From: a virus
Reading direction: 5' to 3' (one strand)
Length of the DNA stretch: 64,000 nucleotides
IMG/VR virus record: IMGVR_UViG_3300046490_000164
Coordinates: 70,170-134,169 of that record
Made by a program: the position numbers and the translations under genes. Of this stretch, positions 13,381-50,375 are shown in pieces. The notes under the pieces are model-generated. The model was not told the origin of the DNA. It ran no database searches and saw nothing but the letters and a program-made list of their open reading frames with translations. Positions within the stretch are counted from its first letter, which is position 1; each line of letters starts with the position of its first letter.

Positions 13381-13851
13381 ATGACGAAGATGGCGGCCTT
13401 CGCGGACGAGCTCGAGAAGATCGCCTGGGACGGGAAGAAGTTCCGCGAGGGTCTGATCGACGAGGGCATTCCCCTGGCCGGGGCCACCATAGGATCTCGC
13501 TACGGCCTGCGAGGTGCTGCGTTGGGGTACGCCGCTGGTGGTGGCGTTTCTCTGGCTCGGTCCTACCTCAAGGGCGAGAAGCCGTCACACCAGCGCAAGC
13601 TGTTGGCGGCGGGAGCGTTGGGGTACGGTGCAGGGGGCCTGGCCCATCACGCACTGGAGAAGGCCACGGCGGGTACGGGGAAGGGTATCCTCAAGCGCAT
13701 CAGGCCCGTGTTCCACCCCCCGTCTGGAGACATCGCCAAGATCAGGACCAAGAACATGGTAGAGGAAGCCCTACCGGCAGCCGGCGCAACCCTGGCCACC
13801 GGCATCGCCAGCGGCACCACGGGACCCAAGAAGAAGCCCAACGAGGCCTGA
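13381..13851 (+). CDS. Small Gly/Ala-rich protein with the N-terminal AFADELEKIA motif (paralog family member 1)
   Basis: ATG 13381 (MTKMAAFADELEKIAWDG) with an AAGAAGG RBS. Alternative upstream start 13261. Gly/Ala-rich segments GAALGYAAGGG and GALGYGAGGLA suggest membrane or glycine-zipper character. Confidence 0.45.
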   Translation: MTKMAAFADELEKIAWDGKKFREGLIDEGIPLAGATIGSRYGLRGAALGYAAGGGVSLARSYLKGEKPSHQRKLLAAGALGYGAGGLAHHALEKATAGTGKGILKRIRPVFHPPSGDIAKIRTKNMVEEALPAAGATLATGIASGTTGPKKKPNEA

Positions 13852-14756
13852 TGAGCACTGCCGAGGACGATCTGTTCGAGAGGCTCCAGAGCCCACCTCC
13901 GTCCCCAGCCGTTCCCGTAGGGGACCCGGACTCCTCGACGCCTGTCACCGTTCGGAATCTCTTCACGCACCACGACGCGCACCCACTCGTCATCGACTTC
14001 GCGCTGCTGAAGACCTTCAACCTGGAGTGGCTCGGGTGGGAGGAGGAGACGATCTGGGCGGAGATCCAGCGCCTCTTCAAGACGCAGATCTCCGAGCACG
14101 CCCGGGCCAAGGTCCGTACGGTCAAGACCTGCCACGTCGCCAACGGCCCGTGGGAGCAGTGGCAGGTGTTCGAGAAGGTCGTGCAGGGGTTGAACAACAA
14201 CGTCCCCCGCTGGGGCATCATGCAGGCCCCGACGCTCGAGCAGCTCTACGCCGCCATCGACATCCTCGCCGGCCTGCGCAAGCAGGACTTCTCGGACGAG
14301 GTGAAGAGGTACATGGCCGCGGCGGTGCTGCATGAGGATGTGGTCTTCGTCCCACCGCCCCTCGACTTCATCCAGGTGGAGGTCAGCCATCCCCACTACG
14401 TCTGCCAGGACTGCGGCAACGAGGACTCGGCCCTCTTCCACGACGGCACCTGCGACACCTGCACCAAGAAGTACGACCTCTCGAATGGCCTCGGCTTCCA
14501 TCCTGACCCGGACGTCCTGGCCAGCGGGCGCGGCAGAAACCTGAAGCTCGTCCTGCGCTACGACCCGGACCCGGTTCAGAAGCTCTGGGACACGGTGAAG
14601 GGCAAGAGGACGGAAGAGGTGGCTGACTCACTCGAGGAGACGCCAGAGGGTGTGCAGGTGGCGAAGCTCCTCATGGCCCGTGACTACCTCGACCTGCGTC
14701 GCAAGCAGCTCGCGGATCAGCTCATCTCCCTGAAGACCTGGCTGGGGGCTGTGTGA
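13851..14756 (+). CDS. Hypothetical protein
   Basis: 301 aa. TGATG overlap with the upstream gene. Contains a CxxC...CxxC pair (CQDCGN...CDTC). Confidence 0.5.
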   Translation: MSTAEDDLFERLQSPPPSPAVPVGDPDSSTPVTVRNLFTHHDAHPLVIDFALLKTFNLEWLGWEEETIWAEIQRLFKTQISEHARAKVRTVKTCHVANGPWEQWQVFEKVVQGLNNNVPRWGIMQAPTLEQLYAAIDILAGLRKQDFSDEVKRYMAAAVLHEDVVFVPPPLDFIQVEVSHPHYVCQDCGNEDSALFHDGTCDTCTKKYDLSNGLGFHPDPDVLASGRGRNLKLVLRYDPDPVQKLWDTVKGKRTEEVADSLEETPEGVQVAKLLMARDYLDLRRKQLADQLISLKTWLGAV

Positions 14757-15265
14757 ACAAGATCGCCATCACTGCCTTCTCGGACGAGCTGGAGAAGATC
14801 TCCAGTATGCAGCTGAACATCGGCACACGCATCGTCTCCCGTGCCGGTGCCGCCGCCAAGGGCGCAGGCAATGTGTTGCACGAGACAGGGCAGGCCGTAC
14901 TGGACCACCTCAACCCGGTACAGAAGATGAGGGAGAGCTGGAACGCCTCGAAGTGGTGGGGGATGAAGGGCCTCACGGTAGGTGGCGCAGCCCTGGCCGC
15001 CCCAGAAGTCCTGCCGAAGGAAGACCCTCTCCACATGAACCGCGGGCGCGCCGAGAGGCTCATCGGCAACGTGGCCGGTACCGCCTCTGGCCTCATCACC
15101 ATGCAGCGGGGCTTCGTGCCGGCCCTGGCTACTGGCCTGGCTGCCCAGTATGCCGGCGGCCGCGTCGGTCGCATGATCGACAAGGCGAAGGGCCGTAAGG
15201 CCCCCGCCACACCTACTCCGCCAGCACAGGCCCCGGTGGCTGCACCACCTGCGAGGACTCCTTGA
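14753..15265 (+). CDS. Small Gly/Ala-rich protein with the N-terminal AFSDELEKIS motif (paralog family member 2)
   Basis: GTG start overlapping the upstream stop. Begins MNKIAITAFSDELEKIS and continues with Gly/Ala-rich stretches. Confidence 0.5.
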   Translation: MNKIAITAFSDELEKISSMQLNIGTRIVSRAGAAAKGAGNVLHETGQAVLDHLNPVQKMRESWNASKWWGMKGLTVGGAALAAPEVLPKEDPLHMNRGRAERLIGNVAGTASGLITMQRGFVPALATGLAAQYAGGRVGRMIDKAKGRKAPATPTPPAQAPVAAPPARTP

Positions 15266-17307
15266 GCTTCGACAACACGACCAGCGGCATGTATGGGGTG
15301 TCCAGGTTCTCTGGGCAGCGGGGGCGTACCGCAGACGGTATGGGCCGTTCGGGAGTGCGCTACCCCTCCCCCTTCTTCGACATCGGGCAGACCTACCTGC
15401 CGCCGACGCAGAAGCACTTGCTGCGGTGGTGCCGGTACTACTACCTCGTCAACCCGCTCATCAACTCGGTCATTCACAAGATGGCGGAGTACCCCATCAC
15501 CGAGATCGTCATCGACGAGCGCGACAAGCGGGTGAAGGACAGGTGGGAGTCCTTCCTCACCAGCACCATCCGCTACCGCCCCTTCCAGATCGAAGTGGGT
15601 CTCGACTACTTCACCTACGGGATGTGCGTCGTCACCATCCACTTCCCGTTCACGAAGTGGCTCATCTGCCGACGCTGCGGCCACAAGGACAAGGCCAAGA
15701 ACACGACATACCGTTGGCGCAACCTGGACTACATGATCTCCTGCCCGAAGTGTGGGGAGGATGGTCCGGCCAAGGTCCAGGACTTCTACGAGAAGGACGT
15801 CCGGCGCATCCGCCTCATGCGGTGGAATCCCGAGTACGTCAACGTCGACCCTGGCTTCGCGGGTACCGACCCCGTCTACACCTTCGAGATCCCTCTCCAG
15901 CTCCGCAACGACCTGCTGCTGGGCAAGAAGACCACGCTCGACACGGTGCCGGACGTCTTCATCGAGGCGATGCGGCGCAACAAGTTCATCCGCTTCAACG
16001 ACGAGAACGTCTTCGTCTTCAAGCGCCCCATCATCTCGATGAAGGACGAGGGATGGGGGATGCCCCTCATCATGCCGGTGCTGAAGGACACCTTCTACCT
16101 TCAGATCCTGCGCAAGGCCCAGGAAGCCATCGCTCACGAGCACATCGTGCCGCTGCGCGTCCTCTTCCCGCAGGCCGGCTCCAACACCTCCGACCCGTAC
16201 ACCACGGTCAACCTCGACTCCTGGAAGTCCAGGATCGAGGGTGAGATCGCCAAGTGGAAGTACGACAACAACTACATCCCCATCCTCCCGCTGCCGATCG
16301 GCAACGAGACCATCGGTGGTGATGGCCGGGCCCTCATGCTCCACCAGGAGATGCAGGCCTGGTCCGAGCAGATCGTGGCCGGCATGGGTGTGCCACGGGA
16401 GTTCGTCTTCGGCGGCCTCACCTACTCCGGCTCGAACGTCTCGATGCGAATGCTGGAGAACAGCTTCATCGGCTACCGCGTCGACCACGAGAACATGCTG
16501 AACCATTTCGTCATCAAGCGCGTGGCCCACTTCATGGGCTGGCCGGTCGTCTCGGCTCACATGCGTCGCTTCAAGATGGCGGACGACCTCCAGCGCACGG
16601 CCTTCTACTTCCAGCTCAATCAGGCCCAGAAGATGTCCGACCAGACCCTCCAGCAGGAGGCCGACCTGGATCCGGTTGTCGAGCGCGAGCTCATCGACAC
16701 GGAGATGTCGACTCTGCTCGACCGCCAGCGGAAGATGCAGACCGCGCAGGCCGAGGTGCAGGGCGAGGTCATGGTCATCCAGGCCAAGCACCAGGCCGAG
16801 GCAGCCAAGCACATGCCCCAGCCGGTCGACCCTGCCACGGGCCAGCCCATGGGCGCGCAGCCAGGGGCCGAGGGTGGGATGCCCGGACAGCCGGGTGCGG
16901 AAGGCCAGGCGGGGGCAGAGGGAGAGATGGTGCCTGGGCAGCAGGTCGCCCCAGGGATGCCAGAGAACTCCACCGTGTCCCTCGAGAATGCCCAGCAGGC
17001 GCCTACCGAGGGCATCCCGCAGGAGATGCAGAGCCCGCTCACCATGGGTCTCCAGGGTGGTGGGGCGAACCTCCTCTACATGGCCAAGCGTGCGGCAACG
17101 GCCATCCAGGAGGCTGAGCAGCAGGGCGGCCCGCAGATGAAGTACACCATGCTCAACACGATGCGGATGTCGAACCCGCAGCTCTACATGCTCGTGCTGC
17201 GCATGCTCCAGAGCCAGCAGGGCTCCCAGGCCAACCCGCTCGACGCCATGCAGTCTCCGCTCCCGCAGCAGAAGCCGGAGCGTAAGGCGCAACCAGTCGG
17301 AGTCTAG
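15262..17307 (+). CDS. Large virion protein, putative portal (T7-like composition), with an internal zinc ribbon
   Basis: 681 aa. The C-terminal Gln/Met/Ala/Gly-rich tail resembles the T7 gp8 portal C-terminus. Internal CRRCGH...CPKCGEDG zinc ribbon. Position is at the head of the virion block. Portal assignment is tentative. Confidence 0.4.
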   Translation: MSFDNTTSGMYGVSRFSGQRGRTADGMGRSGVRYPSPFFDIGQTYLPPTQKHLLRWCRYYYLVNPLINSVIHKMAEYPITEIVIDERDKRVKDRWESFLTSTIRYRPFQIEVGLDYFTYGMCVVTIHFPFTKWLICRRCGHKDKAKNTTYRWRNLDYMISCPKCGEDGPAKVQDFYEKDVRRIRLMRWNPEYVNVDPGFAGTDPVYTFEIPLQLRNDLLLGKKTTLDTVPDVFIEAMRRNKFIRFNDENVFVFKRPIISMKDEGWGMPLIMPVLKDTFYLQILRKAQEAIAHEHIVPLRVLFPQAGSNTSDPYTTVNLDSWKSRIEGEIAKWKYDNNYIPILPLPIGNETIGGDGRALMLHQEMQAWSEQIVAGMGVPREFVFGGLTYSGSNVSMRMLENSFIGYRVDHENMLNHFVIKRVAHFMGWPVVSAHMRRFKMADDLQRTAFYFQLNQAQKMSDQTLQQEADLDPVVERELIDTEMSTLLDRQRKMQTAQAEVQGEVMVIQAKHQAEAAKHMPQPVDPATGQPMGAQPGAEGGMPGQPGAEGQAGAEGEMVPGQQVAPGMPENSTVSLENAQQAPTEGIPQEMQSPLTMGLQGGGANLLYMAKRAATAIQEAEQQGGPQMKYTMLNTMRMSNPQLYMLVLRMLQSQQGSQANPLDAMQSPLPQQKPERKAQPVGV

Positions 17308-18708: not shown

Positions 18709-18711
18709 TCT

Positions 18712-18848: not shown

Positions 18849-21800
18849 ATGGCTGATGCCAGCAATCTTACGCCCGACATCGCATTCGACACGTTGAAGT
18901 CGAACACGCTCGAGGCGATCAAGTCCTACTTCCCCTTCGACGGCAAGCACCGCCAGATCCATGTGGCGAACCTGCACGTTGACGACAAGCTGGACACCGA
19001 TGATGTGACCTCACAGGCGGAGGCCCGGGACAAGGAGGGCACCTGGGGCGTCCCCATCAAGGCCGACATCAAGCTGGTAGACAAGCTCACCGGCAAGACC
19101 ATAGACGAGAAGAAGGGCGCCATCATCGCCCGCCTTCCCAAGCTCACCAACCGCTACGGCTTCATCGTCGGAGGGAACGAGTACCAGGTCGACCACCTCT
19201 TCCGCCTGAAGAGCGGCATCTACGCCCGGGTCCAGGAGAACGGCGACCTGGAGAGCGAGTTCAACCTGGCCCACAGCCCGACGGGCCGCAACTTCTCCAT
19301 CAAGCTCGACGGCCAGAACAAGCGGTTCACCGTGAAGTACGGCGACGCCCACATCCCGCTCTACCCCCTGATGAAGAGCATGGGGGTCTCCGACGAACAG
19401 ATGGAGCAGCAGTGGGGCCGAGAAATCTTCTCCGCCAACCACCCCAAGACGGACGCTAAGTTCCGTGCCTCGCTCGCCTCCTTCGTGAAGCGCACGAGCG
19501 ACGCCGAGAACGTCGACACCCACAGCACCGACGAGCTGCACAAGCAGGTCCGCAACTTCTTCGACCAGACCTCCCTCCGCCCGGACACCACCAAGCTCAC
19601 ACTCGGCAAGGCCTACACCTCGGTGAACGGGGAGGTCCTGTCCCGCGCCGCCCAGAAGCTGCTGGGCGTGTCCCGCGGCACCGAGAAGCCTGACGATCGA
19701 GACAGCCTGGCCTTCAAGGAGGTCGTGTCCGTCGAGGACTTCGTCCCGGAGAAGATCCAGCGGAGCGCGAAGACCATCCGCTCCCGTCTTCGCCAGACGG
19801 TGGACAAGAAGAGCAGCGTAGGGGAGATCCTCTCCTCCGATCTCTTCAACCGCCCCATCCACGAGTTCTTCACGAAGGGTGGCTCGGTCGCAGAGCGCAG
19901 CGACCAAACCAACCCGATCCAGATGCTCTCGGCCCACCGCAAGACGACCCTCATGTCGAGGGAGTTCGGCGGCATCAAGAGCGACATGAGCATCACCCCC
20001 GACATGCGCGGGGTGAACCAGAGCCACATCGGGTTCCTCGACCCGATGCACACCCCGGAGTCCGAGAAGACCGGCATCACGCTCCACCTCTCGGCCAACG
20101 CGCGCAAGAACGGGCGCGACCTCGAGATCCCGGTCTACGACCTCGAGACCAAGAAGCCGGTGTGGGTGAAGGCCCCTGACTTCCACAACTCCATGGCCAT
20201 CCTGCCGGACCAGGTGACCTGGAAGAACGGCGTACCGACGCCCATCGCCAAGGAAGTGAAGGTGAAGGCGGTCGGTGGGGAGATCCTCGTCAAGCCGGCC
20301 GACTCCGCTCGCTACGTCATGCCGAGCGCCAAGGGGATGTGGAACTACAGCTCCAACCTCATCCCCTTCCTGCCCACCGACAACGGCAACCGGCTCATGA
20401 TGGCCGACAAGCAGATGGAGCAGGCCATCTCGCTCAAGCACCGGGAGGCCCCGCTCGTCCAGTCCAAGACGGACCACCCTACGGATCCGAGCCACACCTT
20501 CGAGAAGTTCATTGGTCACTTCGTGGCCACGAAGAGCCCGGTGTCTGGGACGATGGTGGGGTCGAAGGGCGATGCCCTCATCATCAAGGACGACGCCGGC
20601 AAGAAGCACGAGGTCCACCTCTACAACCACTTCGCGCTGAACGACCCCAAGGGGATGATGCACTCCGAGCCCCTCGTGAAGCCGGGGGACAAGGTCCGTA
20701 AGGGCCAGGTGGTGGCCGACAACAACTACACCAAGGACGGTGCGCTCGCTGTCGGCACCAACCTCCAGATCGGCTACCTGCCATACAAGGGCTACAACTT
20801 CGAGGATGGCATCGTCATCTCGGAGAGCGCGGCCCAGAAGCTCACCTCCGAGCACCTCTACAAGAAGGCGCTCGAGATCGATCCGGACCACGACCACATC
20901 TCCACAGCCAAGTTCAAGGCGTACTCCGTGGTGAAGGCGTCGCAGATGACGCCGGAGCAGTGGGGGCTCCTGGACGAGAACGGCGTGGTCAAGCCAGGGT
21001 CGAAGATCCTGCCCGGCCAGGTGCTCATCGCGGCCGTAGGCAAGAACGAGACGCGCCGCCTATCCCCTCTCGCCGGGTACGGCAAGCGAGCCTTCCAGCC
21101 CTTCAAGGACAAGTCCCTGACCTGGGACGAGGACCACGTCGGCATCGTGACCAAGGTCATCCCCATCTCGGGCGGCCGCGGCTACCGCGTCCACGTGAAG
21201 ACGGAGGAGCCGGCGGTGGTGGGCGACAAGCTCGCCGGACGCCACGGCAACAAGGGCATCATCACGCAGATCCTGCCCGACCACGAGATGCCCTTCACGA
21301 AGGACGGAGAAGAGCGCAAGCCTCTCCAGGTCCTGCTCAACCCGTCAGGCATCCCGACCCGACTCAACCCGGGCCAGATGCTCGAGACCCTTGCCGGGAA
21401 GATCGCCCAGAAGATTGGCAAGCCGTACGTCGTCAACAACTTCGGCAGCGCCGTGTCGGACTACCGCACTGGCATCGAGCACGAGCTGAAGGCGCACGGC
21501 ATCCCTGACGAGGAGATGGTCTTCGATCCCAAGGACACCCGTCGTCCTCTTGGGTCAGTGGCCGTCGGCCCCCAGTACATCCTGAAGCTGAAGCACCAGG
21601 TCGAGAAGAAGCTCACAGCTCGTGGCGGTGGGACGAGCGTGGAGGGCAAGCGCCTCTCCTCGGACATCGACCACCAACCTCCGAAGGGCTCTGGCGTCCC
21701 TGGCGGCGGGCAGGGCTTCGGCGCCCTGGAGATGTACGGCCTCCTGGGGCACAACGCTCGCCACAACATCCGGGAGATGGCGACGTACAAGTCCGATGCC

Positions 21801-39029: not shown

Positions 39030-40736
39030 ATGGACAAGCGCACCCTCTTCCTCGGCGCATCCGACGCCGGCGTCTTCGCCCAGGCACTCGATGCCTCGAT
39101 GGAGAAGACTGCCGGCGTGCCGGGGCAGGCATGGGACACCGCCGATGAGATCCGTCGCTTCATCAAGACCCTCACGAAGAAGGACCGGGCAGAGAACTGC
39201 TATGTCCTCGTGACGGCTCTGGGGGCTGGCGAGTACTACGGCTCCAACATCAACGCCGACTACTTCCCCTGGGACGCCCTGGCGCACGAGGGGGAGGACT
39301 ACGGCTACAAGACGTTCCTCAACGCCCACGCCTACGCGCACCACGTCAACAAGGACTCAGAGCGTTCCTTCGGCATCCCGGTCGTCTCCGTCCTGAACCC
39401 GCGTATGAAGCGGGTTGAGCTGGTCATCAAGCTCAACCGGGCGAAGGCCAAGCAGGAGGGTGCGGACGGCATCATCTCCCGCATCGACGCTGGTGAGTTC
39501 CCAGACGTCTCGATGGGCTGCAAGGTGCCCTTCGACGTCTGCTCCTACTGCGGACACCACTCCAAGACCCGCGACGACTACTGCGAGCATATGCGTCCGC
39601 CCCCGGAGATGCGGGGGATCTGGGGTCCGAACAGGATCACCTCGGACGGCGTTCGCATCTGCGTCTACAACACCCTGCCCCGCTTCTTCGACATCTCCTT
39701 CGTCTTCATCGGCGCGGACAAGATCGCCAAGGTGATGGCGAAGCTGGCCTCGAAGGGGAACCAGCACTGCCTTGGGAGCGTCTGTGCTCTTCCCTCTGCT
39801 GGGGAGGAAGATGCCCCCGTCCTGTATGGCGCGCACGGTGAGGTGCTGGACGTGAAGCAGATGCGGAAGGTCGCATCGGCCCAGTGCGATGGGATGCGTG
39901 GCCCGTGCGGTCGTCTCTGTGACGACTGTGCCGAGAAGAGGTCCTGCCACAGCACCAAGCTCGCAAGCGCCTTCGGGGTGAAGGAGGCCACCGAGCGCAA
40001 GGTGGCCGAAATGCTGAAGACCGTCCCGGCCGGCAACTTCGCCATGAAGAAGCTGCCCGAGATGGAGGCCAGCGAGCCTGACCTCCCGAACGACATCCTG
40101 GACTCCATGGCGGGCCACCCGCTTCAGTCGTCAATGGGCACTTCCAGCCTGGCCGGTGTGGTCCTCAAGCCCAGGGAGTTCCAGCGGATCGTCCTCATCA
40201 GGATGGGCGAGGACGACCTGGCCAACGATCTCGACCGCTCCAGGCACGTCTTCCGGCCCGTACATCGGTTTGATGACAGCCTCGATCTCTCCCTCGACCC
40301 GGTAGAAGAGATCCTCCATCTCCTGCTTCCGTATCTGCGTGCGAGGAGCGCCCTCGGGGCCCACCTCCATCTCCGGCGGTCGGGGCCCGCGCAAGAGGTC
40401 AAAAAGACTCTTCCCACCCACGAGCCTGTCGCGCATCCTTTACTGGACAAGGTCAGCGCGGCGTACAACGGCTACCGTCGAAGCATGATGTTGAAGCTGT
40501 CGAAGGTGCGAGAGGAAGTAGAGAGCGACTCAAGGTTGCGGGCAGCGATTCTCGGAGAGACCCTGGGCGACATGTTCCTGAAGACCTCCAGAGCCTCCTC
40601 CGTCGTGACCCCCGACTCGGTTGCATACATGATGAGCGCTCATCTCTCAGACCGTAGCCTGCTGTCCGGCACCGCCGTTGCGGAGTCAATCGCGGTGAGC
40701 AACACCTCGCTCCTCTCTGAGGGGCTCACGGCCTAG
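39030..40736 (+). CDS. Hypothetical large protein with a central Cys cluster (CKVPFDVCSYCGHH...CEH)
   Basis: 568 aa. TAG-ATG junction with the upstream gene. Could be a portal or a protease, but no diagnostic motif was recognised. Confidence 0.5.
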   Translation: MDKRTLFLGASDAGVFAQALDASMEKTAGVPGQAWDTADEIRRFIKTLTKKDRAENCYVLVTALGAGEYYGSNINADYFPWDALAHEGEDYGYKTFLNAHAYAHHVNKDSERSFGIPVVSVLNPRMKRVELVIKLNRAKAKQEGADGIISRIDAGEFPDVSMGCKVPFDVCSYCGHHSKTRDDYCEHMRPPPEMRGIWGPNRITSDGVRICVYNTLPRFFDISFVFIGADKIAKVMAKLASKGNQHCLGSVCALPSAGEEDAPVLYGAHGEVLDVKQMRKVASAQCDGMRGPCGRLCDDCAEKRSCHSTKLASAFGVKEATERKVAEMLKTVPAGNFAMKKLPEMEASEPDLPNDILDSMAGHPLQSSMGTSSLAGVVLKPREFQRIVLIRMGEDDLANDLDRSRHVFRPVHRFDDSLDLSLDPVEEILHLLLPYLRARSALGAHLHLRRSGPAQEVKKTLPTHEPVAHPLLDKVSAAYNGYRRSMMLKLSKVREEVESDSRLRAAILGETLGDMFLKTSRASSVVTPDSVAYMMSAHLSDRSLLSGTAVAESIAVSNTSLLSEGLTA

Positions 40737-40806
40737 AGGTTTCGACCTCGAAGACGGCCACCACAACGTCGCGCATCACCCACCTACCCGCAGCAAGGAG
40801 ATGTTC

Positions 40807-41598
40807 ATGGACCCCACACTGGCTGAGATCTACGGCACCAACCAGACCGACGAGGCCGACGTCGAGAAGCTCGCCGCGGCAGAGCTCGCTGCTGAGCTGA
40901 CCGACGACGGCGACGCCGACATCGAAGGCCTCACCGAGGAGCAGCTCGAGGAAGTCGCCGCCGAGGTCATGGCCTCCGGTGACGAGAACGAGGAAGAGGC
41001 TGCCGTCGAGGAGCCGGCCGAGGAGATGCAGGAGAAGGTCGCCGAGGCCGACCACCTCGGGCGCGTCATGGCGCACGCCTTCGTCCAGGAGAGCCGCGAG
41101 ATCGAGAAGGAGGCTGGCATCAAGGATCTCGCCAAGAAGGGCCTCGACGCCGCCAAGACGCACGGTGGCAAGGTGCTCGCCAAGGTCAAGGAGATCGGTG
41201 GCAAGGCCAAGGGCCACGCCAAGCGGTACGGCGAGCTGATGGCTGGTGGCGAGAAGCCCCTGGCCGGCGGCAAGCGTCCGGGCAACGCCCTCAAGCTCCA
41301 CGCGAAGGGCAGCCACTACCGCTCGGAGCAGCTGAAGTCCCTCGGCGCCCGGGCGGGTACCGCCGCGGCCGTGGGTGCTGCTGGTGGTGCCGCCGCGTAC
41401 AAGCGGAAGCACTCCTCCGCCCTCGACACCCTCGTGCAGCAGCGCGCCCTCGAGATCCTCGCCGCGAACGGCGTCGAGATCGAGCCCGAGGAGACCGAGA
41501 AGACGTCGGCCGCCGACAAGTACGACGTCCTGGCGGACGTGGTCGAGCAGCGCGCCCAGGAGCTCCTGGTCGCCAACGGCTACGAGTTCCAGGAGTAG
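40807..41598 (+). CDS. Acidic/Lys-rich protein, tandem paralog A
   Basis: AAGGAG RBS 6 nt before the second ATG at 40807. The C-terminal block HSSALDTLVQQRALEILAANGVEIE matches the C-terminus of the downstream gene. Confidence 0.5.
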   Translation: MDPTLAEIYGTNQTDEADVEKLAAAELAAELTDDGDADIEGLTEEQLEEVAAEVMASGDENEEEAAVEEPAEEMQEKVAEADHLGRVMAHAFVQESREIEKEAGIKDLAKKGLDAAKTHGGKVLAKVKEIGGKAKGHAKRYGELMAGGEKPLAGGKRPGNALKLHAKGSHYRSEQLKSLGARAGTAAAVGAAGGAAAYKRKHSSALDTLVQQRALEILAANGVEIEPEETEKTSAADKYDVLADVVEQRAQELLVANGYEFQE

Positions 41599-41605
41599 CA
41601 CCTAG

Positions 41606-41640
41606 GTGCGGGGCTCTGGGTACGAGACAGAGCCCCGCAC
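41606..41640 (+). terminator. Intrinsic terminator with a 13-bp perfect stem (GTGCGGGGCTCTG...CAGAGCCCCGCAC)
   Basis: Read directly from the sequence, 8 nt after the stop of 40807-41598. Followed by a C/T-rich tract. Confidence 0.55.
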
Positions 41641-41671
41641 CGCCTTTCCCTCTTCGCTCTGGAACCACACG

Positions 41672-42139
41672 ATGACCTACGACGAACTGGAAGTCCTGGC
41701 CGAGGAAGTTCTCGAGAAGACCGCCGCCTCTGCTGGTCAGCAGGGTGAGGAAGGCCACAAGCTGTGGCAGGCCAACCAGGCTCGTCGCTCAGCGGAGGAG
41801 GAGATCGCAGACCTTCCTCGTGGCCTGCACCATGGGCGCGAGAGCAGCATCGGCCCGTCCAAGCCGAAGACCGTCATGGATCGCATCAAGGACGTAGGCA
41901 GCAAGGCCAAGGGCCGTGCCAAGGAGCTGGGGGCCAAGGCCAAGCACCACGCCGGCCGTGCCGTCGAGGTGGTCAAGAAGCACCCGAAGTCGTTCGGCGC
42001 AGGTGCTGTGGGGCTGGCAGCCGCTGGCTACGGAGCACACCGTCTGTCCAAGCAGAGCTCTGCTCTCGACACCCTCGTCCTTCTGCGTGCTGAGGAGATC
42101 CTGGCCGAGAACGGCATCGGTACCGCGGAGCAGGAGTAG
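41672..42139 (+). CDS. Tandem paralog B of 40807-41598
   Basis: ATG 41672 (MTYDELEVLAEEVLEK). Shares SSALDTLVLLRAEEILAENGIGTAEQE and a GSKAKGRAKELGAKAKHHA block with paralog A. Confidence 0.5.
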   Translation: MTYDELEVLAEEVLEKTAASAGQQGEEGHKLWQANQARRSAEEEIADLPRGLHHGRESSIGPSKPKTVMDRIKDVGSKAKGRAKELGAKAKHHAGRAVEVVKKHPKSFGAGAVGLAAAGYGAHRLSKQSSALDTLVLLRAEEILAENGIGTAEQE

Positions 42140-42148
42140 TTCTCGTCG

Positions 42149-42601
42149 ATGCCGGCATGGATCCACGACCGCGCGAAGCACATCCGGAGCAAGAACCCGG
42201 AGATGTCGGAGAGTGAGTCCTTCGCAATAGCAACGCAGCAGGCACATGCAACAGGACACACCCCGAAGGGGTTTGGAACGTCACAGGGGAAGAAGGTAGC
42301 GAAGGGGAAGTACGACGAGCCGAAGGCGGAGTACGTGCAGACTGCGGATCCGAGCAGCAAGACCAAGAAGAGCAGCATCAGCTTGGTCTCGGTGCAGGGC
42401 TTCGCAAGAGAACTTGAGAAGATCGCAACGTTGGCAAGTGTGAACGCAGTAGGGAATGGAGCACTCAGGCGTTCGACGTTGATGACGCCGCCAAAGAAGA
42501 CCTCGATTCCCAGAGACCCGGCACCACCTGCACCGATGACCGACCTTCTCAGCAGCACCAAGACGATCCAACCTCCGCCAGTGACGGCGGGCAGTCTGTA
42601 A
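42149..42601 (+). CDS. Hypothetical protein with an internal FARELEKIA motif (paralog family member 3, divergent)
   Basis: 150-aa ORF. The motif FARELEKIATLASVNAVGNG sits mid-protein. Confidence 0.4.
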   Translation: MPAWIHDRAKHIRSKNPEMSESESFAIATQQAHATGHTPKGFGTSQGKKVAKGKYDEPKAEYVQTADPSSKTKKSSISLVSVQGFARELEKIATLASVNAVGNGALRRSTLMTPPKKTSIPRDPAPPAPMTDLLSSTKTIQPPPVTAGSL

Positions 42602-42611
42602 GGAGACCGAG

Positions 42612-43631: not shown

Positions 43632-43658
43632 CACGAGAGCCCAGAGAGGACAGGCGTC

Positions 43659-44027
43659 ATGAGGAAGATCAGCAGCGTCGAGGCCGGACAGATGATGAAG
43701 CTGGCGGCCGCGAATCTCCGGGGACTCTCGGAGGAGAACCAGCAGCTCCGCGAGAAGGTCGCGAGCTACGAGAAGAGGGAGCGCGCCGAGAAGATCGCCA
43801 CCGCGATGGAGGAGAAGGGCCTCGAGCCCGAGGCCTCCTTCGAGGACAAGGTGGACGGTCTGCTCAAGCGCGAGGACCTCGACGTGGTGGAGAAGGCCGT
43901 CGGCTTCTCGGCACCCCAGATGAAGATCGCCTCCGTGCACGAAGACGGGTTCGGTGGCGAAGTCGAGGGTGACACCGAGGGCGGATCGGCGGCAGCGAAC
44001 TTCGCAGCGGGCCTGGCCTCGCTATAG
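43659..44027 (+). CDS. Coiled-coil protein, putative scaffolding protein
   Basis: 122 aa. Predicted coiled coil (LRGLSEENQQLREKVASYEKRERAEKIATAMEEKG). Lies two genes upstream of the putative capsid gene. Confidence 0.45.
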   Translation: MRKISSVEAGQMMKLAAANLRGLSEENQQLREKVASYEKRERAEKIATAMEEKGLEPEASFEDKVDGLLKREDLDVVEKAVGFSAPQMKIASVHEDGFGGEVEGDTEGGSAAANFAAGLASL

Positions 44028-44076
44028 GCCCATCAACCGCAGTGAACACACACAACCCTTGAAGGAGAGCTGACAG

Positions 44077-44547
44077 ATGGCAACCCCGAACTTCGAGCTC
44101 GTCACCGAGCTCCAGACGACCACCCGCCGGGACTTCCCCCTGGCTGACCTCACGGCGCTCGCGCCGCTCAACTCCAACGCGCTGCTGGACGGCGAGTGGC
44201 TGGAGCTCGACTCCAACTACAAGCTGGCCCGTGGTGCCGCCGGTGCTGGCCTCGTGCCGGCGTACGTCGTCCACACCGAGCGCGGTCGGTACGACACGCA
44301 GGCCATCGGCAAGGTGAACGTGATCATGCTCGGCATGTACGAGGCCGAGACCAAGATCGTGGACACCACCTCCCTGGTGATCGGCTCGCCGCTCATCGTC
44401 ACCGACGTCAACACCCAGGGCTACGCCTCCCGGCGCGGCCTCGCCATCGAAGGCGCCACAGCTGGCCGCATGCTGGTCGGCTACGTCAGCAAGCTCCCCG
44501 GTGGCGGCAAGGTCCGCTTCGTCCACTTCGGCTACCAGAAGCGGTAA
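44077..44547 (+). CDS. Hypothetical virion protein (head-associated?)
   Basis: GAAGGAGAG RBS. 156 aa. Confidence 0.5.
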   Translation: MATPNFELVTELQTTTRRDFPLADLTALAPLNSNALLDGEWLELDSNYKLARGAAGAGLVPAYVVHTERGRYDTQAIGKVNVIMLGMYEAETKIVDTTSLVIGSPLIVTDVNTQGYASRRGLAIEGATAGRMLVGYVSKLPGGGKVRFVHFGYQKR

Positions 44548-44583
44548 TCGGTAGCCCACCCCCAGGAACCAGGAGACCAGCAA

Positions 44584-45714
44584 ATGAGCATCCCATCCAA
44601 GGCCGTCAACGACCTCTTCTTCGAGAAGGTCGGTACCTCGGAAGGCAAGGACAAGATCGCGGAGTTCGGCGGGACGTACATCCGCGACCGCCTCCGCGAA
44701 GTGTCCTTCGCCCGCAAGATCCTGCCGCCCACGCCGGTGCAGCGCACCGAGCTCCAGCGGTCGGTCAACCACGACACCCTCGTGAAGATCGTCGACGTGG
44801 AGCCCAACTCGCGGGCCATGTCGATGTCCTTCCGCGGGCAGCCCACCGCCCGCCTCATCCGCGCCGCGCGCTTCGAGATCCCCTTCTTCACGATCTCCTC
44901 GGAGAAGTTCGAGAAGCACGAGCAGGAGCTCCTGGCGTACGAGATGCCCATCACCAAGATCATCGAGGAGAACTCGGTGAAGGACATCCAGGCCATCGAG
45001 GACCGGCAGTTCCTGGTCTACGACGAGGCCGCCATCCAGGCGATGCAGCTCTCGGTCAACGGCGTGACGTCCTTCACGTCCGGCACCGCAGCCACCTCCG
45101 CGAACTTCCTCGCGGGCACCTGCAAGGCCGGCTCCGTGGTGAAGGGTGAGGGCGCCCTCCAGTCCGCCACCACCGACTTCGTGATCCACCCGATCCTGAA
45201 GCCGGACTTCATCAAGATCAAGCAGCTCCTGCACCGCCGCTTCCTCCGGGCGGAGCGCATCCTCATCACCGAGCCCGACTACGACAACCTGTCGGCCTGG
45301 ACCATCCAGGACGTCTGGAACATCGCGGCCGAGACGGCGACCGAGGGCTGGAAGGCCAACACGGTGGTCGGCCTCAAGATCATCCGGACCATCAAGACCA
45401 ACATCCTCCGCGAGGGCAACGTCTACTGCTTCACCGCCCCCGAGTTCTTCGGCCGGTTCTACATCCTGAACCAGACGAAGTTCTACATCGACAAGATCGC
45501 CAACCTGATCACCTGGCAGAGCTGGGAAGACATCGGGATGGGCATCGGCAACATCTCGTCGATCGTGAAGCTCGAGCTCTACTCGGGCTCCGTCTCGCCT
45601 GGCCAGGAGACCACCGGCTACGCCGCCCTCCTGCCGGCTGACGAGGACCAGCTGAACCCGGTCAACAACAAGGCCGACGACGGCAACACGGTGCCTGCGG
45701 TCGACCAGTTCTAA
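44584..45714 (+). CDS. Putative major capsid protein
   Basis: CAGGAGACC RBS. 376 aa, a size typical of HK97-fold capsid proteins. Preceded by scaffold-like genes and followed immediately by a strong terminator, as is usual for highly expressed capsid genes. No sequence motif confirms the call. Confidence 0.45.
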   Translation: MSIPSKAVNDLFFEKVGTSEGKDKIAEFGGTYIRDRLREVSFARKILPPTPVQRTELQRSVNHDTLVKIVDVEPNSRAMSMSFRGQPTARLIRAARFEIPFFTISSEKFEKHEQELLAYEMPITKIIEENSVKDIQAIEDRQFLVYDEAAIQAMQLSVNGVTSFTSGTAATSANFLAGTCKAGSVVKGEGALQSATTDFVIHPILKPDFIKIKQLLHRRFLRAERILITEPDYDNLSAWTIQDVWNIAAETATEGWKANTVVGLKIIRTIKTNILREGNVYCFTAPEFFGRFYILNQTKFYIDKIANLITWQSWEDIGMGIGNISSIVKLELYSGSVSPGQETTGYAALLPADEDQLNPVNNKADDGNTVPAVDQF

Positions 45715-46606: not shown

Positions 46607-47149
46607 TTGTCGGACCCGAACGCACTGACTCCGGCCCAGCAGGCCGCCTCCCCCGGTCCCGTGGCCTCTGAGCCTGGGGACCTTCCTCGCGCCAACGTCG
46701 AGCTCAACGCCTTCGTCAACGCCGTCCGTGCCTTCCTCCGTGACTACCCGGAGCTCAACCGCCTCGTCTCCGGGGAGGAGAGCACCAACAGGCAGATCAT
46801 GTGGGCCATCGCGGACTGCCTGGACGACTTCAACACCACCCCGCCCTTCACCAGCTTCGGCATCGGCACCTTCCCCTCGAAGAGCATGTTGCTGCGCGGG
46901 ACGGTGTGCACGCTCCTCGAGAGCATCGGTCTGCTCCAGACGCGCAACCACCTCCAGTTCTCGGACGGCGGCATCACGGTCGGCATCAACGACAAGACGC
47001 CCTTCCTCCAGAGCTGGATTCAGCTCTTCCGCAACTCCTACGAGGAGAAGAAGCTGAAGCTCAAGGTGGCCTACAACATCGAGAATGCCTGGGGCGGAGG
47101 CATCTTCTCGGAGTTCCGGTTCATCAACAACTTCTACGGAGAATGGTGA
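46607..47149 (+). CDS. Hypothetical protein
   Basis: 180-aa ORF; its stop overlaps the next start (TGATG). Confidence 0.5.
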   Translation: MSDPNALTPAQQAASPGPVASEPGDLPRANVELNAFVNAVRAFLRDYPELNRLVSGEESTNRQIMWAIADCLDDFNTTPPFTSFGIGTFPSKSMLLRGTVCTLLESIGLLQTRNHLQFSDGGITVGINDKTPFLQSWIQLFRNSYEEKKLKLKVAYNIENAWGGGIFSEFRFINNFYGEW

Positions 47150-47484
47150 TGCTCGAGGCCTCTTACACAGCCTTCTTTGATGAGCTGGAGAAGATCGCTG
47201 TCAGCCCGACCTGGGTGCGCAACACCACAGCCACCGCTGCGAAGCGTATCGCTAGCTCCGGGCAGGCTGGGGCAGACCGAGTGCAGAAGTTCGTGGTGAA
47301 CAACATCAAGAAGCGCAACACCCTACAGGCAGCCCAGAAGAAGCCCTTCGCGGGGCGGGCGGCTTGGAAGCGCAACGAGGCGGTGGAGGAGGGCACGATC
47401 GCCGGCCACTACTCCAAGAAGCCGAACCCGTGGCACTTCGACGACAACACGGCTCAGCACGAACTGAAGCCTGGGACACGTTAG
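47149..47484 (+). CDS. Small protein with the N-terminal AFFDELEKIA motif (paralog family member 4)
   Basis: ATG 47149 in a TGATG overlap. Begins MLEASYTAFFDELEKIAVSPTW. Confidence 0.5.
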   Translation: MLEASYTAFFDELEKIAVSPTWVRNTTATAAKRIASSGQAGADRVQKFVVNNIKKRNTLQAAQKKPFAGRAAWKRNEAVEEGTIAGHYSKKPNPWHFDDNTAQHELKPGTR

Positions 47485-48086: not shown

Positions 48087-48095
48087 GAGAACACC

Positions 48096-49166: not shown

Positions 49167-49171
49167 GGCTC

Positions 49172-50080
49172 ATGCTGAAGGTCACGAAGCTCGAAGTTAG
49201 GTCGCTCGACCTCGACCACCTGGACGTCTTCTGGGTGATTGGGAACGTGCCTGGCCCGAGGCGTGACGAAGACCCACACGAGATCCTGTCGTACCAGTTC
49301 TTCATCCTTCGGGCCGGGGACAGCCCGATGGGTCCGTACGAGCAGATCGCCGGACCCTTCGTCGACCAGTACAGCTTCCGCGACTCGCAGGTCACTCTCC
49401 TGCACAAGTGGCGGCAGTATCACTACAAGCTGCGCGTGGTCGATCGTCGAACCGGGGAATCGGAGGAGTTCGGCCCTGCATCGTCGGGGGCCGCTCCTCC
49501 GGACCTCATCCAGCGCGAGATCATGCGCCAGGAGGACATCCTCTTCAGGGAGTTCACCGGTCGCCGCTGCTGGCTCTTCCCTGTTAGGACCTTCGGCCCG
49601 CGTTGCTCCTGCTTCGACATGACAACTGGGCGTGTCACTCGCTCCAACCACGCGCTCTGCTACGGCACCGGCTTCTTGGGTGGCTTCATGTCCCCCATCG
49701 AGGTCTTCGTCCAGATCGACCCCAACAACGTCAACACCGCATCATCGTCACTTCAAGAGGTGCAGCAGAGCGACACCTCCGCGAGACTGATCTCCTTCCC
49801 ACCCGTCAACCCCCAAGACATACTGGTGGAGGCAGAGAACAGGCGTTGGCGAGTCATCAACATGATGCCAACAGAGCGTCTTCGCGCGATGGTGCGGCAG
49901 GAGCTTAGGATTCACGAGGTACCGAGAGGCGACATCATCTACGACCTCCCGCTGAGAGTGGACCTGAGCGTGTCCTCGTCGGCCAGGAGGAACTTCACGA
50001 ACCCGCAGAACCTGGAGAACGATGGCGACATCTCGCCAATCCTTGCAGCTTACGGCGGCTTTCCACCGGGGACTCTATGA
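49172..50080 (+). CDS. Hypothetical protein
   Basis: 302-aa ORF. Confidence 0.5.
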   Translation: MLKVTKLEVRSLDLDHLDVFWVIGNVPGPRRDEDPHEILSYQFFILRAGDSPMGPYEQIAGPFVDQYSFRDSQVTLLHKWRQYHYKLRVVDRRTGESEEFGPASSGAAPPDLIQREIMRQEDILFREFTGRRCWLFPVRTFGPRCSCFDMTTGRVTRSNHALCYGTGFLGGFMSPIEVFVQIDPNNVNTASSSLQEVQQSDTSARLISFPPVNPQDILVEAENRRWRVINMMPTERLRAMVRQELRIHEVPRGDIIYDLPLRVDLSVSSSARRNFTNPQNLENDGDISPILAAYGGFPPGTL

Positions 50081-50375
50081 CGAGCTGGAGAAGATCTCCG
50101 CCGCCAAGGGGATCTCCGCCGAAGATCGTCAGCGCCGCGAGAAGCTGAAGAAGTGGGCCAAGAACACGGCCCTCTTCGCAGCCGGCACGGGTGCGGGGAC
50201 TGGCACCGCCATGATTGGTGAGCGCCTCATCTCGAGTGCGTTCGGAGCGCGATGGAAGGCCATGCCGAAGTCCAAGCAGATGGCCATCCTCGGCCCAGCA
50301 ATCGGTATCGCCAGCGTGGGTGGGGCACTCTTGATGAGGAAGGCTCTGGAAGAGAAGCGGAAGGCCGATGAGTGA
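50022..50375 (+). CDS. Small Gly/Ala-rich protein with the LYDELEKIS motif (paralog family member 5)
   Basis: Begins ...TAAFHRGLYDELEKISAAKG and carries the Gly/Ala stretch LFAAGTGAGTGTAMIG. The start is uncertain; the track start overlaps the upstream gene by 59 nt, and a downstream TTG at about 50043 is possible. Confidence 0.45.
   Translation: MATSRQSLQLTAAFHRGLYDELEKISAAKGISAEDRQRREKLKKWAKNTALFAAGTGAGTGTAMIGERLISSAFGARWKAMPKSKQMAILGPAIGIASVGGALLMRKALEEKRKADE

Follow-up and report, generated by a model that had tools for sequence, protein, structure and literature searches.

A portable helical peptide on unrelated proteins of an uncultured phage: a putative virion-loading tag

Five small proteins scattered among the structural genes of an uncultured ~200-kb phage carry nearly the same short peptide, which raises the question of whether the resemblance is real and, if so, where the peptide might direct the proteins that bear it. 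The original prediction, made for the 64-kb stretch of DNA analyzed here (the window), located five such proteins, and we find all five at the positions it gave.

The motif and its bearers in the window

The motif is not a product of chance. ELEK occurs five times in the six-frame translation of the window, always on the + strand and always within one of the five motifs, and ELEKI[AS] is observed five times vs. 0.0012 expected from composition (Poisson P ~2e-17); no ELEK string lies outside the motifs to suggest the compositional coincidence that had been considered as a pitfall. An HMM of the motif, proposed at the outset as a check, scores the five window tags at 18–26 bits, and the next best match in the window reaches 6.5 bits. 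The maximum for reversed sequences is 6.4 bits (window and first 81 related loci, 16,565 ORFs), and in the window and these loci every one of the 76 matches of at least 14 bits lies on the strand of the major capsid protein (MCP) gene. The tag is absent from the genomes or genome parts scanned from distant or unrelated phages, namely PA-SR01 (137 kb; top score 4.1 bits) and the MCP locus of Salmonella phage Arash (24.9 kb; top score 4.3 bits with the first HMM), and a search of INPHARED for a cultured tag-bearing phage found none, the nearest MCP there being 29% identical.

All five tagged genes are on the structural strand and adjoin portal, head, or neck/sheath genes. Two of them lie immediately 5' of the portal gene (15262..17307, + strand), whose product is 30% identical (E = 1.6e-70) to the annotated Arash portal gp204. 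The first, two genes 5' of the portal gene, has a longest ORF of 196 aa (13261..13851, + strand); its start is uncertain, with 13363, 13381, or 13390 likely, and GC3 is 0.60 in codons 1–40 vs. 0.80 after. Its tag, MAAFADELEKIAWDG (13390-13434, + strand; 25.8 bits), precedes a tail rich in Gly and Ala that contains [GAS]xxx[GAS] runs. Counterpart tags occur ~1.7–2.3 kb upstream of the portal start in 6/6 portal-centred loci, five of them scoring 16–24 bits and those of L087 and L088 scoring 11.7 and 9.9 bits, respectively. The second (14753..15265, + strand; 170 aa from a GTG start) shares 4 nt with the start of the portal gene, and an independent gene call gives the identical 170-aa product. 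Its N-terminus, MNKIAITAFSDELEKISSM (14753-14809), is a canonical tag with F at residue 9 (tag peptide TAFSDELEKISSM, 14771-14809, + strand; 19.1 bits), and in 6/6 loci the tag is retained by positional orthologs located ~500 nt before the portal gene.

The third protein (42149..42601, + strand; 150 aa) is a clade-wide core member encoded in the head module, where its gene is preceded by scaffold-like genes and followed by scaffold and MCP genes; in 46 MCP-centred loci a syntenic ortholog is found 2.1–3.2 kb before the start of the MCP gene, and all 58 of its database homologs are annotated as hypothetical. In it, an 80-aa helical N-domain is followed by the tag (VSVQGFARELEKIATL, 42386-42433, + strand; 18.2 bits), a disordered linker, and a conserved C-terminal peptide ending in SSTKTIQPPPVT. 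The AlphaFold2 model places the tag in a helix (residues 79–98) between coil or disordered segments, and the N-domain has a pLDDT of 88–95.

The fourth protein (47149..47484, + strand; 111 aa), whose start codon shares 1 nt with the stop codon of the gene before it, has a canonical N-terminus, MLEASYTAFFDELEKIAV (47149-47202), again with F at residue 9 (tag peptide ASYTAFFDELEKIAV, 47158-47202, + strand; 22.8 bits), and a basic tail that is neither hydrophobic nor Gly-rich. At the same position, 2.1–2.8 kb after the MCP start, tagged ORFs with unrelated tails are found in eight relatives (L004, L007, L009, L010, L016, L021, L022, and L023). The fifth (50022..50375, + strand; 117 aa) lies between neck/tail genes and a sheath-like gene, just upstream of the latter. 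In its tag, AFHRGLYDELEKISAAK (50058-50108, + strand; 20.4 bits), Y replaces F, with a Met 16 residues before that aromatic position, a spacing that is identical in orthologs from L011, L016, and L017; two hydrophobic Gly/Ala segments follow (maximum KD19 1.90).

As judged by sequence comparison, these proteins are not the paralogs they had been taken for, and the tag peptide is the only part they share: outside the motif, blastp returns weak Gly/Ala compositional matches only. Other elements of the original prediction hold for some members. The motif is strictly N-terminal in the second and fourth proteins and nearly so in the first, but internal in the third (residues 83–98 of 150). The first, second, and fifth are Gly/Ala-rich (30–34%), unlike the tails of the fourth (21% G+A) and third (16% G+A), and of the four members checked for glycine-zipper-like [GAS]xxx[GAS] runs, the first and fifth have them and the second and fourth have none.

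Conservation, anatomy, and cargo of the tag

In 2.36 Mb of related contigs, including 80 loci retrieved with the window MCP, we find 180 distinct tag copies in 146 loci; reversing the sequences of the first 82 sources as a control yields zero copies. Among the genes neighboring the pattern-derived matches, those homologous to the protease, MCP, terminase, and scaffold-like genes predominate. The consensus, M-[DNS]-x-φ-x-φ-x-[GAS]-F-x-D-E-L-x-K-I-[ASG], spans ~17 residues, and its F, D, E, L, K, and I are 87–100% conserved. Since synonymous codons vary freely at the tag (GAT 34 and GAC 28 times, four codons for Leu, three for Ile, and four for Ala), selection acts on the peptide, and the tag is conserved across the clade as a peptide and not as DNA. 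In 144 of the 180 copies (~80%) a Met/ATG lies 2–17 codons 5' of the tag; an ATG exactly 8 codons before F, which puts F at residue 9, is the commonest spacing (58/178 copies). Approximately 20% of the copies are internal and two are C-terminal, which is compatible with a docking helix and not with a classical N-terminal propeptide. One high-scoring match, in L181, is the N-terminus of a transketolase and looks like a chance resemblance.

Conserved positions (9–10 across 13 residues) follow the helical periodicity i, i+4, i+7, i+8; the helical hydrophobic moment is 0.4–0.6, with L, F, L, I, and A falling in a 100° arc. Information content drops directly after K-I-A, where a low-complexity linker rich in A, P, G, T, and K begins, and structure prediction gives the tag as a lone helix between disordered stretches. 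Such an amphipathic helix could instead bind membranes, or act as a host-factor or degradation signal, on small late membrane proteins for lysis or superinfection exclusion that have nothing to do with the virion; three of the five window proteins do have moderately hydrophobic Gly/Ala segments, the KD19 value of the fifth being the maximum quoted above. We regard this as highly improbable, because six near-invariant residues, two of them acidic, in phages with MCPs ~50% identical point to a specific protein interface that generic lipid binding would not need. Moreover, the tag lacks Sec/Tat features, and many of the proteins behind it are soluble enzymes or hydrophilic, such as the fourth window protein, the family of the third, and the helicases described next.

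The 147 distinct tails that follow the tag fall into 88 BLAST clusters; on this clustering, the tag is modular and is carried by at least 88 unrelated kinds of cargo, including enzymes. Tagged SNF2 helicases occur in four loci (L004, L105, L092, and L108), where the tag is an N-terminal add-on and the core starts a few residues later, whereas an untagged ortholog, Arash gp217 (36–38% identity), starts directly at the core. A virion mass-spectrometry table places Arash gp217 among the proteins with high counts, at 1148 spectra (PMC10585845). As the Arash structural list holds 116/272 proteins, listing there is weak evidence except for proteins with high spectral counts. Further cargo includes Peptidase_C92/NlpC-P60 amidases, a Zn-peptidase, MazG with a P-loop, and a glyoxalase-GNAT protein, a repertoire that fits injected or virion proteins. 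The fused RNA polymerase, homologs of which are the most abundant virion proteins of Arash, has no tag, so the tag is dispensable for some internal proteins.

Head machinery and the possible destination of tagged proteins

The phage has T4-like head machinery, comprising a protease with the gp21/assemblin fold and a scaffold-like protein that itself contains a tag-like helix. The N-terminal 240 residues of the prohead (head maturation) protease (39030..40736, + strand) adopt the fold of T4 gp21 and herpesvirus assemblin, with H105 and S161 invariant and a C-terminal extension after the fold; this protein is a candidate processing enzyme for the tagged proteins. The motif might even be primarily a recognition or cleavage site for this protease, marking processing rather than targeting. 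The Glu at +3 is invariant (67/67 instances), Glu being the residue after which T4-type proteases cut (PMC5694885), a K-I-A-E subset of tags ends like the T4 F-I-A-E cleavage site, and a DKIAE is conserved in the N-arm of the MCP (44584..45714, + strand; 29% identical over 87% of its length to the annotated Arash MCP). We consider this quite improbable, as such sites span 3–4 residues and not the 9–10 helically spaced positions conserved here, the would-be P3 of D-E↓L varies (A, S, F, T, L, or R), and the P1-equivalent position of the MCP is E, Q, or A across the clade. T4-like cleavage of a targeting sequence would need a conserved Glu after the tag; none was found among the 67 instances, Glu occupying position +9 in 11 of them (16%), which counts against it. 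A processing role and a targeting role could in any case coexist.

The scaffold-like head-module protein (40801..41598, + strand) is acidic at its N-terminus and rich in Lys in the middle, has two ALDTLVxxRAxEILAxNG helices in its C-terminal part, and carries an internal degenerate tag-like helix, GRVMAHAFVQESREIEKEAG. Its orthologs have GRVMAHSYxQELxKIAAA, and these helices score 8.4–11.5 bits with the tag HMM vs. the reversed-control maximum of 6.4, making the protein a candidate partner or origin of the tag. A paralog of its C-terminal half follows (41606..42139, + strand); the JGI call from an internal ATG gives a 155-aa product with a tag-like N-terminus, MTYDELEVLAEEVLEKTAA, which the tag HMM does not detect. 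Downstream are a Lys/Glu-rich protein (42612-43631, + strand; 339 aa, with homologs in 66 MCP-centred loci) and one rich in Glu and Lys (43659-44027, + strand; 122 aa, with homologs in 70). Family searches with both gave nothing above threshold, with weak sub-threshold matches of the latter to ZapB/DivIC-type coiled-coil families, and by position and composition both are candidate scaffolding proteins and possible tag receptors.

The helix in the scaffold-like protein also suggests that tags could bundle with one another and with it to form a heteromeric internal body or ejection complex, no separate receptor being needed. Related (L/F)EK(I/T)A strings in several head-module proteins are consistent with this, as are the many Gly/Ala-rich, moderately hydrophobic tails that resemble ejection proteins. 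Even so, we give such self-association a slim chance: at 13 residues the helix is short to form a stable coiled coil, its invariant D-E and K point to a specific interface with a heterologous partner, and enzymes (helicase, GNAT, MazG) are unlikely building blocks. It would be a variant mechanism of docking in the virion rather than its opposite.

Tagged proteins might also be loaded into the tail, with the payload docked to the baseplate hub, central spike, or tube lumen. In nine loci (L092, L161, L162, L171, L176, L179, L185, L195, and L207), tagged genes or tandem arrays of them occur directly downstream of, and on the same strand as, large tail-type ORFs of 900–1300 aa. Six of these ORFs form one family, the N-termini of two (L176 and L092) match that of the Arash virion cell-wall hydrolase gp8, and one ORF contains a β-helix, which is typical of tail spikes. 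Where arrays follow such a hub-like gene, tail loading fits as well as head loading, and the fifth window gene lies next to the sheath-like gene. Payloads of extracellular contractile injection systems (eCIS, PVC) are likewise encoded in arrays downstream of contractile-tail genes and bear a transferable N-terminal loading signal on unrelated effectors (PMC10097599, PMC11495950). The eCIS signals differ in being ~50–70 aa long, poorly conserved, and dependent on the Pvc15 AAA ATPase, and they lead to the tube lumen of a tail-only particle; we identified no Pvc15-type loader beside tagged genes. In a myovirus the tape-measure protein fills the tube lumen; a folded helicase of 720 aa would be too large for it. 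Tail loading is unlikely in our view, given that the sole clade-wide tagged family is encoded in the head module, flanked by the protease and scaffold-like genes and, on the other side, by scaffold and MCP genes, that two tagged genes adjoin the portal gene, and that the tag-like helix is inside a head protein.

A vault-like shell had also been put forward as the address of the tag. The window does encode a major vault protein (MVP)-like protein (57843-60569; MVP_shoulder E 8e-23, Vault_3 E 1e-10) beside an AAA_5 ATPase gene, but this cassette is on the strand opposite to the tagged genes, 7.5 kb from the nearest one, and no tagged gene adjoins it. Homologs of MVP, AAA_5, and the 60813 gene are absent from the 146 tag loci (2.36 Mb, mainly head regions of relatives), a scan of close relatives in IMG/VR found no MVP homolog, and in L182 the cassette is missing from the 6 kb downstream of the ortholog of the 55663 gene. 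Known vault cargo enters via an INT domain of ~160 aa and not a short helix. The MVP-like gene is real, and the likelihood that the tag serves it is minimal.

Comparison with known loading systems and a proposed role

The T4 capsid-targeting sequence (CTS), cited in the original prediction as a model for a targeting or docking peptide, is the closest analog. The T4 internal proteins are otherwise highly diverse and have only this sequence, MKTYQEFIAE, in common (PMC3012670, PMC8442874, PMC5694885). As with IPI–III and Alt, a short N-terminal peptide is here the sole conserved part of unrelated, fast-evolving proteins that are encoded partly in variable arrays and include enzymes, in a phage with a scaffold core and a gp21-fold prohead protease; about one-sixth of the tags end in K-I-A-E, cf. 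F-I-A-E in T4. The tag differs in having no detectable homology to the CTS, in its greater length (~17 aa) and clear amphipathic-helix periodicity, in ending without a conserved Glu cleavage site, in the ~20% of copies that are internal or C-terminal, and in cargo much of which is Gly/Ala-rich and hydrophobic rather than basic. Packaging and cleavage are hypothetical here.

Other systems share fewer of these features. Encapsulins dock diverse enzymes inside an HK97-fold shell by a short, portable, position-tolerant peptide with a flexible Pro/Ala/Gly-rich linker. Their cargo-loading peptides are usually C-terminal and extended and have a different consensus, whereas here the peptide is helical and mostly N-terminal and the shell is a genuine phage capsid that comes with a portal, a terminase, and a protease. 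In P1, the DarB helicase/methyltransferase, an anti-defence protein, is packaged in a myovirus head and injected; the likeness, drawn by description, is a helicase-family enzyme as cargo, but P1 loads via dedicated adaptor proteins (DarA, Hdf) and not a shared peptide tag. Phages like phiKZ and SPN3US are also large; they carry an RNA polymerase in the virion, have a prohead protease of T4 type, and contain numerous internal proteins in the head. The N-terminal regions of their ejection or inner-body proteins are thought to target these into the prohead (PMC5694885); they are propeptides of 80–130 residues, paralog-specific and defined by A/S/G-x-E cleavage sites, and not a single short motif on unrelated families.

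Based on the clade-wide peptide, its cargo clusters, predicted helix, and structural-module context, together with the virion-detected Arash gp217 and the gp21-fold protease, we infer incorporation into the virion, a receptor there, and a probable destination in the head rather than the tail. On balance we lean toward a portable amphipathic-helix docking tag, analogous to the T4 CTS, by which proteins may be recruited to the virion during its assembly, with the prohead core as the probable site. The tag would fold into a short amphipathic α-helix ahead of a flexible linker, and its hydrophobic face (φ-3, F0, L4, I7, and A8) and invariant charged D2, E3, and K6 would dock at one conserved protein site of the assembling virion, most likely in the prohead core, on scaffold-like proteins, the portal, or the capsid interior. 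In this way a changeable set of unrelated proteins, made up of small proteins rich in Gly and Ala, one core protein of the head module, and enzymes in the relatives, may enter the particle and reach the next host.

A conserved peptide on otherwise dissimilar proteins

The window (63% G+C) comes from a large tailed phage that has not been cultured. Its first 12 kb carry replication genes on the − strand (family A DNA polymerase, primase, DnaB, UDG, and ResIII helicase), while the + strand encodes a portal (15262-17307; 30% identical to gp204 of the Salmonella phage Arash), a fused β-β' multisubunit RNA polymerase (18849-25136), a large terminase (33839-35683), a head module (39030-45714) whose last gene is the major capsid protein (MCP; 44584-45714; 29% identical to the Arash MCP), and, after the head module, a sheath-like protein (51175-54489). 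The sheath-like gene is separated from the next tail genes by an inserted HNH endonuclease gene (54533-55183, +; HNH_3, E 5.9e-12).

Five + strand genes, named here by their starts (13261, which runs to 13851, 14753, 42149, 47149, and 50022), share a peptide that we call the tag, with residues counted from its Phe as position 0; the part of each protein beyond it is referred to as tail or cargo. In six-frame translation, the window contains the string ELEK five times in all, always on the + strand and always within [FY]-x-[DR]-E-L-E-K-I-[AS], and all five copies lie where the original prediction had placed them. That prediction took the proteins for a paralogous family, which proved incorrect because, motif aside, they have only a Gly/Ala-rich composition in common: an all-against-all blastp of the five returned motif or low-complexity Gly/Ala matches only, with E above 1e-3, and the tails cluster separately. 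The N-terminal position proposed for the motif holds for 14753 and 47149, where F is residue 9, and nearly so for 13261-13851, in which codons 1–40 of the ORF look non-coding by GC3; in 50022 the motif lies 16 residues in, and in 42149 it is internal. The glycine-zipper character also ascribed to the proteins is likewise partial, with [GAS]xxx[GAS] runs in 13261 and 50022 and none in 14753 and 47149, the four members scanned. Maximum 19-residue hydropathy is 1.0–1.9 for 13261, 14753, and 50022 and below 0.4 for 47149 and 42149. Pfam and PHROGs gave nothing significant for the five proteins or for other small head-module proteins, nor did NCBIfam, searched with the larger neighbours only, give any match. 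All 58 database homologs of 42149 are "hypothetical", no family library names any of the five, and a literature search with the motif strings found no paper.

Using the MCP as an IMG/VR query, we obtained 80 related loci (49–83% identity), many of them on contigs of 170–210 kb. A tag HMM, made with the first instances and then refined in one iteration, was scanned on the window and 81 loci (these 80 plus the Arash locus). It gave 76 matches of at least 14 bits, all on the MCP strand, with a maximum of 6.4 bits in the reversed-sequence control. This control and the 0.0012 occurrences of ELEKI[AS] expected in the window from composition, against five seen, rule out chance or compositional coincidence as the source of the motif. 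In the Arash MCP locus (24.9 kb) the first HMM found no tag and nothing above 4.3 bits. The complete genome of the unrelated cyanophage PA-SR01 also contains no tag (best score 4.1 bits), though its helicase alignment starts at the tag position.

The tag covers 17 positions (for example, MNKIAITAFSDELEKIS) with the logo M(-8)-[SDN]-x-φ-x-[LWM]-x-[GAS]-F-x-D-E-L-x-K-I-[ASG], in which F, D, E, L, K, and I are 87–100% conserved; the five window copies are those with Glu at its one variable position. Information content drops to background directly past the motif, where the sequence is Ala/Pro/Gly/Thr/Lys-rich. Because synonymous codons are free to vary at each conserved residue, the constraint is on the peptide rather than on a nucleic-acid signal, and for the same reason a DNA or RNA element such as a promoter, ribosome-binding site, or recombination box near the starts was rejected. 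A back-translated DNA pattern of the tag matched at least 119 further IMG/VR stretches; of 90 loci derived from this pattern, 60 contain at least one window-protein homolog, usually of the protease, MCP, terminase, or scaffold-like genes. Altogether, 180 distinct tag instances of at least 14 bits were found in 146 loci (2.36 Mb compared). An ATG lies 2–17 codons upstream in 144 of the 180, making these N-terminal, and exactly 8 codons ahead of F in 58 of 178, while two instances are C-terminal.

Other sequences also resemble the tag. A transketolase-type N-terminus (MRTAFVDELCKIAEDHPELILLTADLG; locus L181, 7835-8770, −) scores 15.7 bits and may be either a chance resemblance or a genuine tagged enzyme. 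The string iMDEIAKIAGDGKA.V.VS is conserved between ORF 56810-57457 (−) of the window, which adjoins a cassette encoding a major vault protein (MVP) homolog, and the related loci L084 and L085 (about 20716, −); it scores 6.5–7.7 bits, lacks the F-x-D half, and was left out of the tag count.

Cargo diversity and the setting of tagged genes

BLAST sorts the 147 distinct tails that reach 60 aa into 88 clusters, 67 of which are singletons. Many are small, Gly/Ala-rich, moderately hydrophobic proteins, but enzymes also occur: three SNF2 helicases, three Peptidase_C92 amidases, one NlpC/P60 protein, a Zn-peptidase, a MazG plus P-loop protein, and a glyoxalase-GNAT fusion. The tagged helicases are orthologs of Arash gp217 (36–38% identity). 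Their catalytic core begins 4–5 residues past the tag, whereas the untagged gp217 begins directly at the core, indicating that the tag is a discrete N-terminal add-on. No tagged cargo besides the helicase has a homolog in Arash, which, with its untagged MCP locus, was therefore set aside as a proteomic stand-in for the tagged set.

One tagged family, that of 42149, is clade-wide and always lies 2.1–3.2 kb upstream of the MCP start. In its members the tag is followed by a variable linker of low complexity and then by a conserved C-terminal peptide, ...KPTNYS.VH...SK.VPPPPV(R)T, and in the window's subclade an extra 80-aa helical N-domain precedes the tag. AF2 predicts the tag of 42149 to be a helix (residues 79–98) with disordered segments on either side. 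The N-domain itself (42149-42390, +; MPxWIHDRAxHIRxKNPxM..S..AIATQQ.H..G) is a predicted helical hairpin with pLDDT of about 90; together with the tag it is a recurring module, which fronts an SNF2 helicase in the related locus L092 (about 3390-3560, −) and three other tails (P0110, P0116, and P0122).

Both genes upstream of the portal are tagged in six of six portal-centred relatives. Elsewhere, tagged genes occur in tandem arrays (five in L161, four in L092, and three in L173), which in several relatives lie directly downstream of ORFs of 900–1300 aa. Six of these large ORFs form one family of 1000–1270 aa (L092 7141-10173, −; L162 4931-8305, +; L176 6913-10737, −; and in L171, L185, and L195) with an N-terminus that starts LKLRLFLEGIEVPVIG; those of L176 and L092 weakly match the N-terminus of Arash gp8, a virion cell-wall hydrolase (tblastn, E about 2e-7). 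Pfam, PHROG, and PDB sequence searches gave no match for this family. Another large ORF beside a tag array, in L179, contains a β-helix domain, the only Pfam match among six such ORFs and three neighbours; PHROGs returned nothing for the eight scanned, and a PDB profile search gave no match. Tags are thus located in head, portal-proximal, and tail/baseplate operons.

Head machinery, possible virion association, and comparison with known systems

As expected of a phage with a T4-type capsid-targeting sequence (CTS), this one has genes for a gp21-type prohead protease and a scaffold core. The protease gene (39030-40736, +) weakly matches the PHROG "head maturation protease"; PDB sequence and profile searches found nothing, and its identity was settled by a fold search. 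His105 and Ser161 are invariant. The protease also has a conserved, predicted disordered N-terminal peptide (39030-39125, +; consensus G.FAQ.LFGS.G.FEKTAGAP), in which K26 and A28 are invariant in 16 aligned orthologs and which ends in a tag-like FEKTAG; this peptide may be the protease's own targeting element.

The next gene, 40801-41598 (+), encodes a scaffold-like protein, orthologs of which contain an internal helix, GRVMAHSYxQELxKIAAA, scoring 8–11 bits with the tag HMM. The resemblance suggests how such tags might originate. The adjacent 41606-42139 (+), whose start in the JGI gene call is MTYDELEVLAEEVLEKTAA, is a paralog of 40801. The two have a second motif in common, the C-terminal helix SSALDTLVxxRAxEILAxNG, with two copies in 40801; the C-terminal helix of Arash gp223 is similar, without a BLAST-level match. 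This helix may act in scaffold or coat binding.

Arash is the closest cultured relative, and its virion proteome detects RNA polymerase subunits, the helicase gp217 (1148 spectra), the protease homolog gp222, gp223, and gp8 (PMC10585845). Thus the untagged ortholog of one tagged cargo is detected in virions, at high spectral counts. The window RNA polymerase, a single untagged ORF of 2095 aa (18849-25136, +) with β-like and β'-like modules, lies 1.5 kb downstream of the portal, and its halves match Arash gp206 (33% identity) and gp216 (26% identity). It is probably virion-packaged, since these homologs rank first and fifth, respectively, by abundance and spectral count in the Arash virion proteome.

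The T4 CTS is a 10-residue N-terminal peptide, the sole conserved part of highly diverse internal proteins, and is removed by gp21 once they are packaged (PMC3012670, PMC8442874, PMC5694885). The tag is similar in being a short, mostly N-terminal peptide (144 of 180 instances) common to non-homologous proteins (88 unrelated tail clusters). However, its consensus, φxφx[GAS]FxDELxKI[ASG], does not align with MKTYQEFIAE, save for I-A-E in 11 of 67 instances, and it has no conserved Glu after K-I-A (position +9 is Glu in 16%). The tag contains an invariant Glu at position +3; we found neither a consistent Glu cleavage site past the tag nor a common site in the MCP N-arm. The cargo peptides of encapsulins bind a portal-less shell whose gene adjoins that of the cargo; the tag, by contrast, accompanies a phage MCP together with a portal, a terminase, a prohead protease, and a contractile tail. 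Payload arrays of extracellular contractile injection systems (eCIS) carry N-terminal loading signals (PMC10097599, PMC11495950), and the tag arrays of relatives, following hub-like or tail-spike-like genes, are reminiscent of these. We found no gene like that of Pvc15, the type of AAA ATPase that loads eCIS payloads, adjoining tagged genes in the window, where the sole AAA gene (62812-63726, AAA_5) belongs to the MVP cassette. We classify the tag as a probable targeting tag resembling a CTS or cargo-loading peptide, but distinct in sequence and helical architecture, position-tolerant, and with a very broad cargo range.

The MVP cassette bears on a further proposal of the original prediction, namely that the motif addresses cargo to a vault-like shell. 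The window does encode an MVP homolog (57843-60569, −; MVP_shoulder E 8e-23, Vault_3 E 1e-10), which is accompanied by a 626-aa ORF with no family match (60813-62693, −) and the AAA_5/MoxR-like ATPase (62812-63726, −). However, no tagged gene adjoins the cassette, and none of the three has a homolog in the 146 tag-bearing loci (2.36 Mb, which cover the relatives in part) or in a close-relative IMG/VR scan. Because the whole clade carries the tag, MVP is an unlikely general receptor for it, and the absence of homologs makes the cassette (57843-63726) look like an accessory of this genome.

A candidate loading signal

On a helical wheel, φ(-3), F0, L4, I7, and A8 fall inside a 100° arc, with D2, E3, and K6 opposite. 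The tag would thus be a short amphipathic helix, its hydrophobic face and its charges both specific, joined through a flexible linker to cargo of any kind, as expected of a docking peptide. Such a peptide would attach its cargo to some conserved part of the virion during assembly, the prohead core being the most likely site. On balance we consider this docking role probable, based on peptide-level conservation in a clade whose MCPs have diverged to about 50%, on diverse and modular cargo, on the location of tagged genes in structural modules, and on a virion-associated helicase ortholog together with a T4-type protease; incorporation of the tagged proteins into the virion, a receptor there, and a head rather than tail destination are inferred. 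A broader proposal, which we put forward tentatively, is that one easily recognised helical tag of 17 residues universally marks the proteins to be loaded and injected in a very large uncultivated clade, phages of ~170–210 kb with their own multisubunit RNA polymerase, and that it may have arisen by mimicry of a scaffold-protein helix.

Phage proteins that are packed in the virion and co-injected with the DNA can usually be known only by proteomics on cultured phages, and many of them are anti-defence or takeover effectors. Should the tag prove to be a loading signal, sequence alone would reveal what an entire uncultured clade injects; the loci sampled so far give at least 88 cargo families, among them SNF2 helicases, cell-wall amidases, MazG, and acetyltransferase fusions. 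The docking role would also provide a second, sequence-unrelated case of the T4 capsid-targeting principle. Being well defined, helical, and position-tolerant, the tag is open to tests by peptide binding or complex prediction and might also serve to load foreign proteins into capsids. If the broader proposal is correct, the tag would be a packaging handle that can be transferred and that differs from the T4 CTS, and every tagged ORF, from helicases, amidases, MazG, and glyoxalase-GNAT to dozens of small unknowns in hypervariable arrays, would be carried in the virion and delivered to the host with the DNA.
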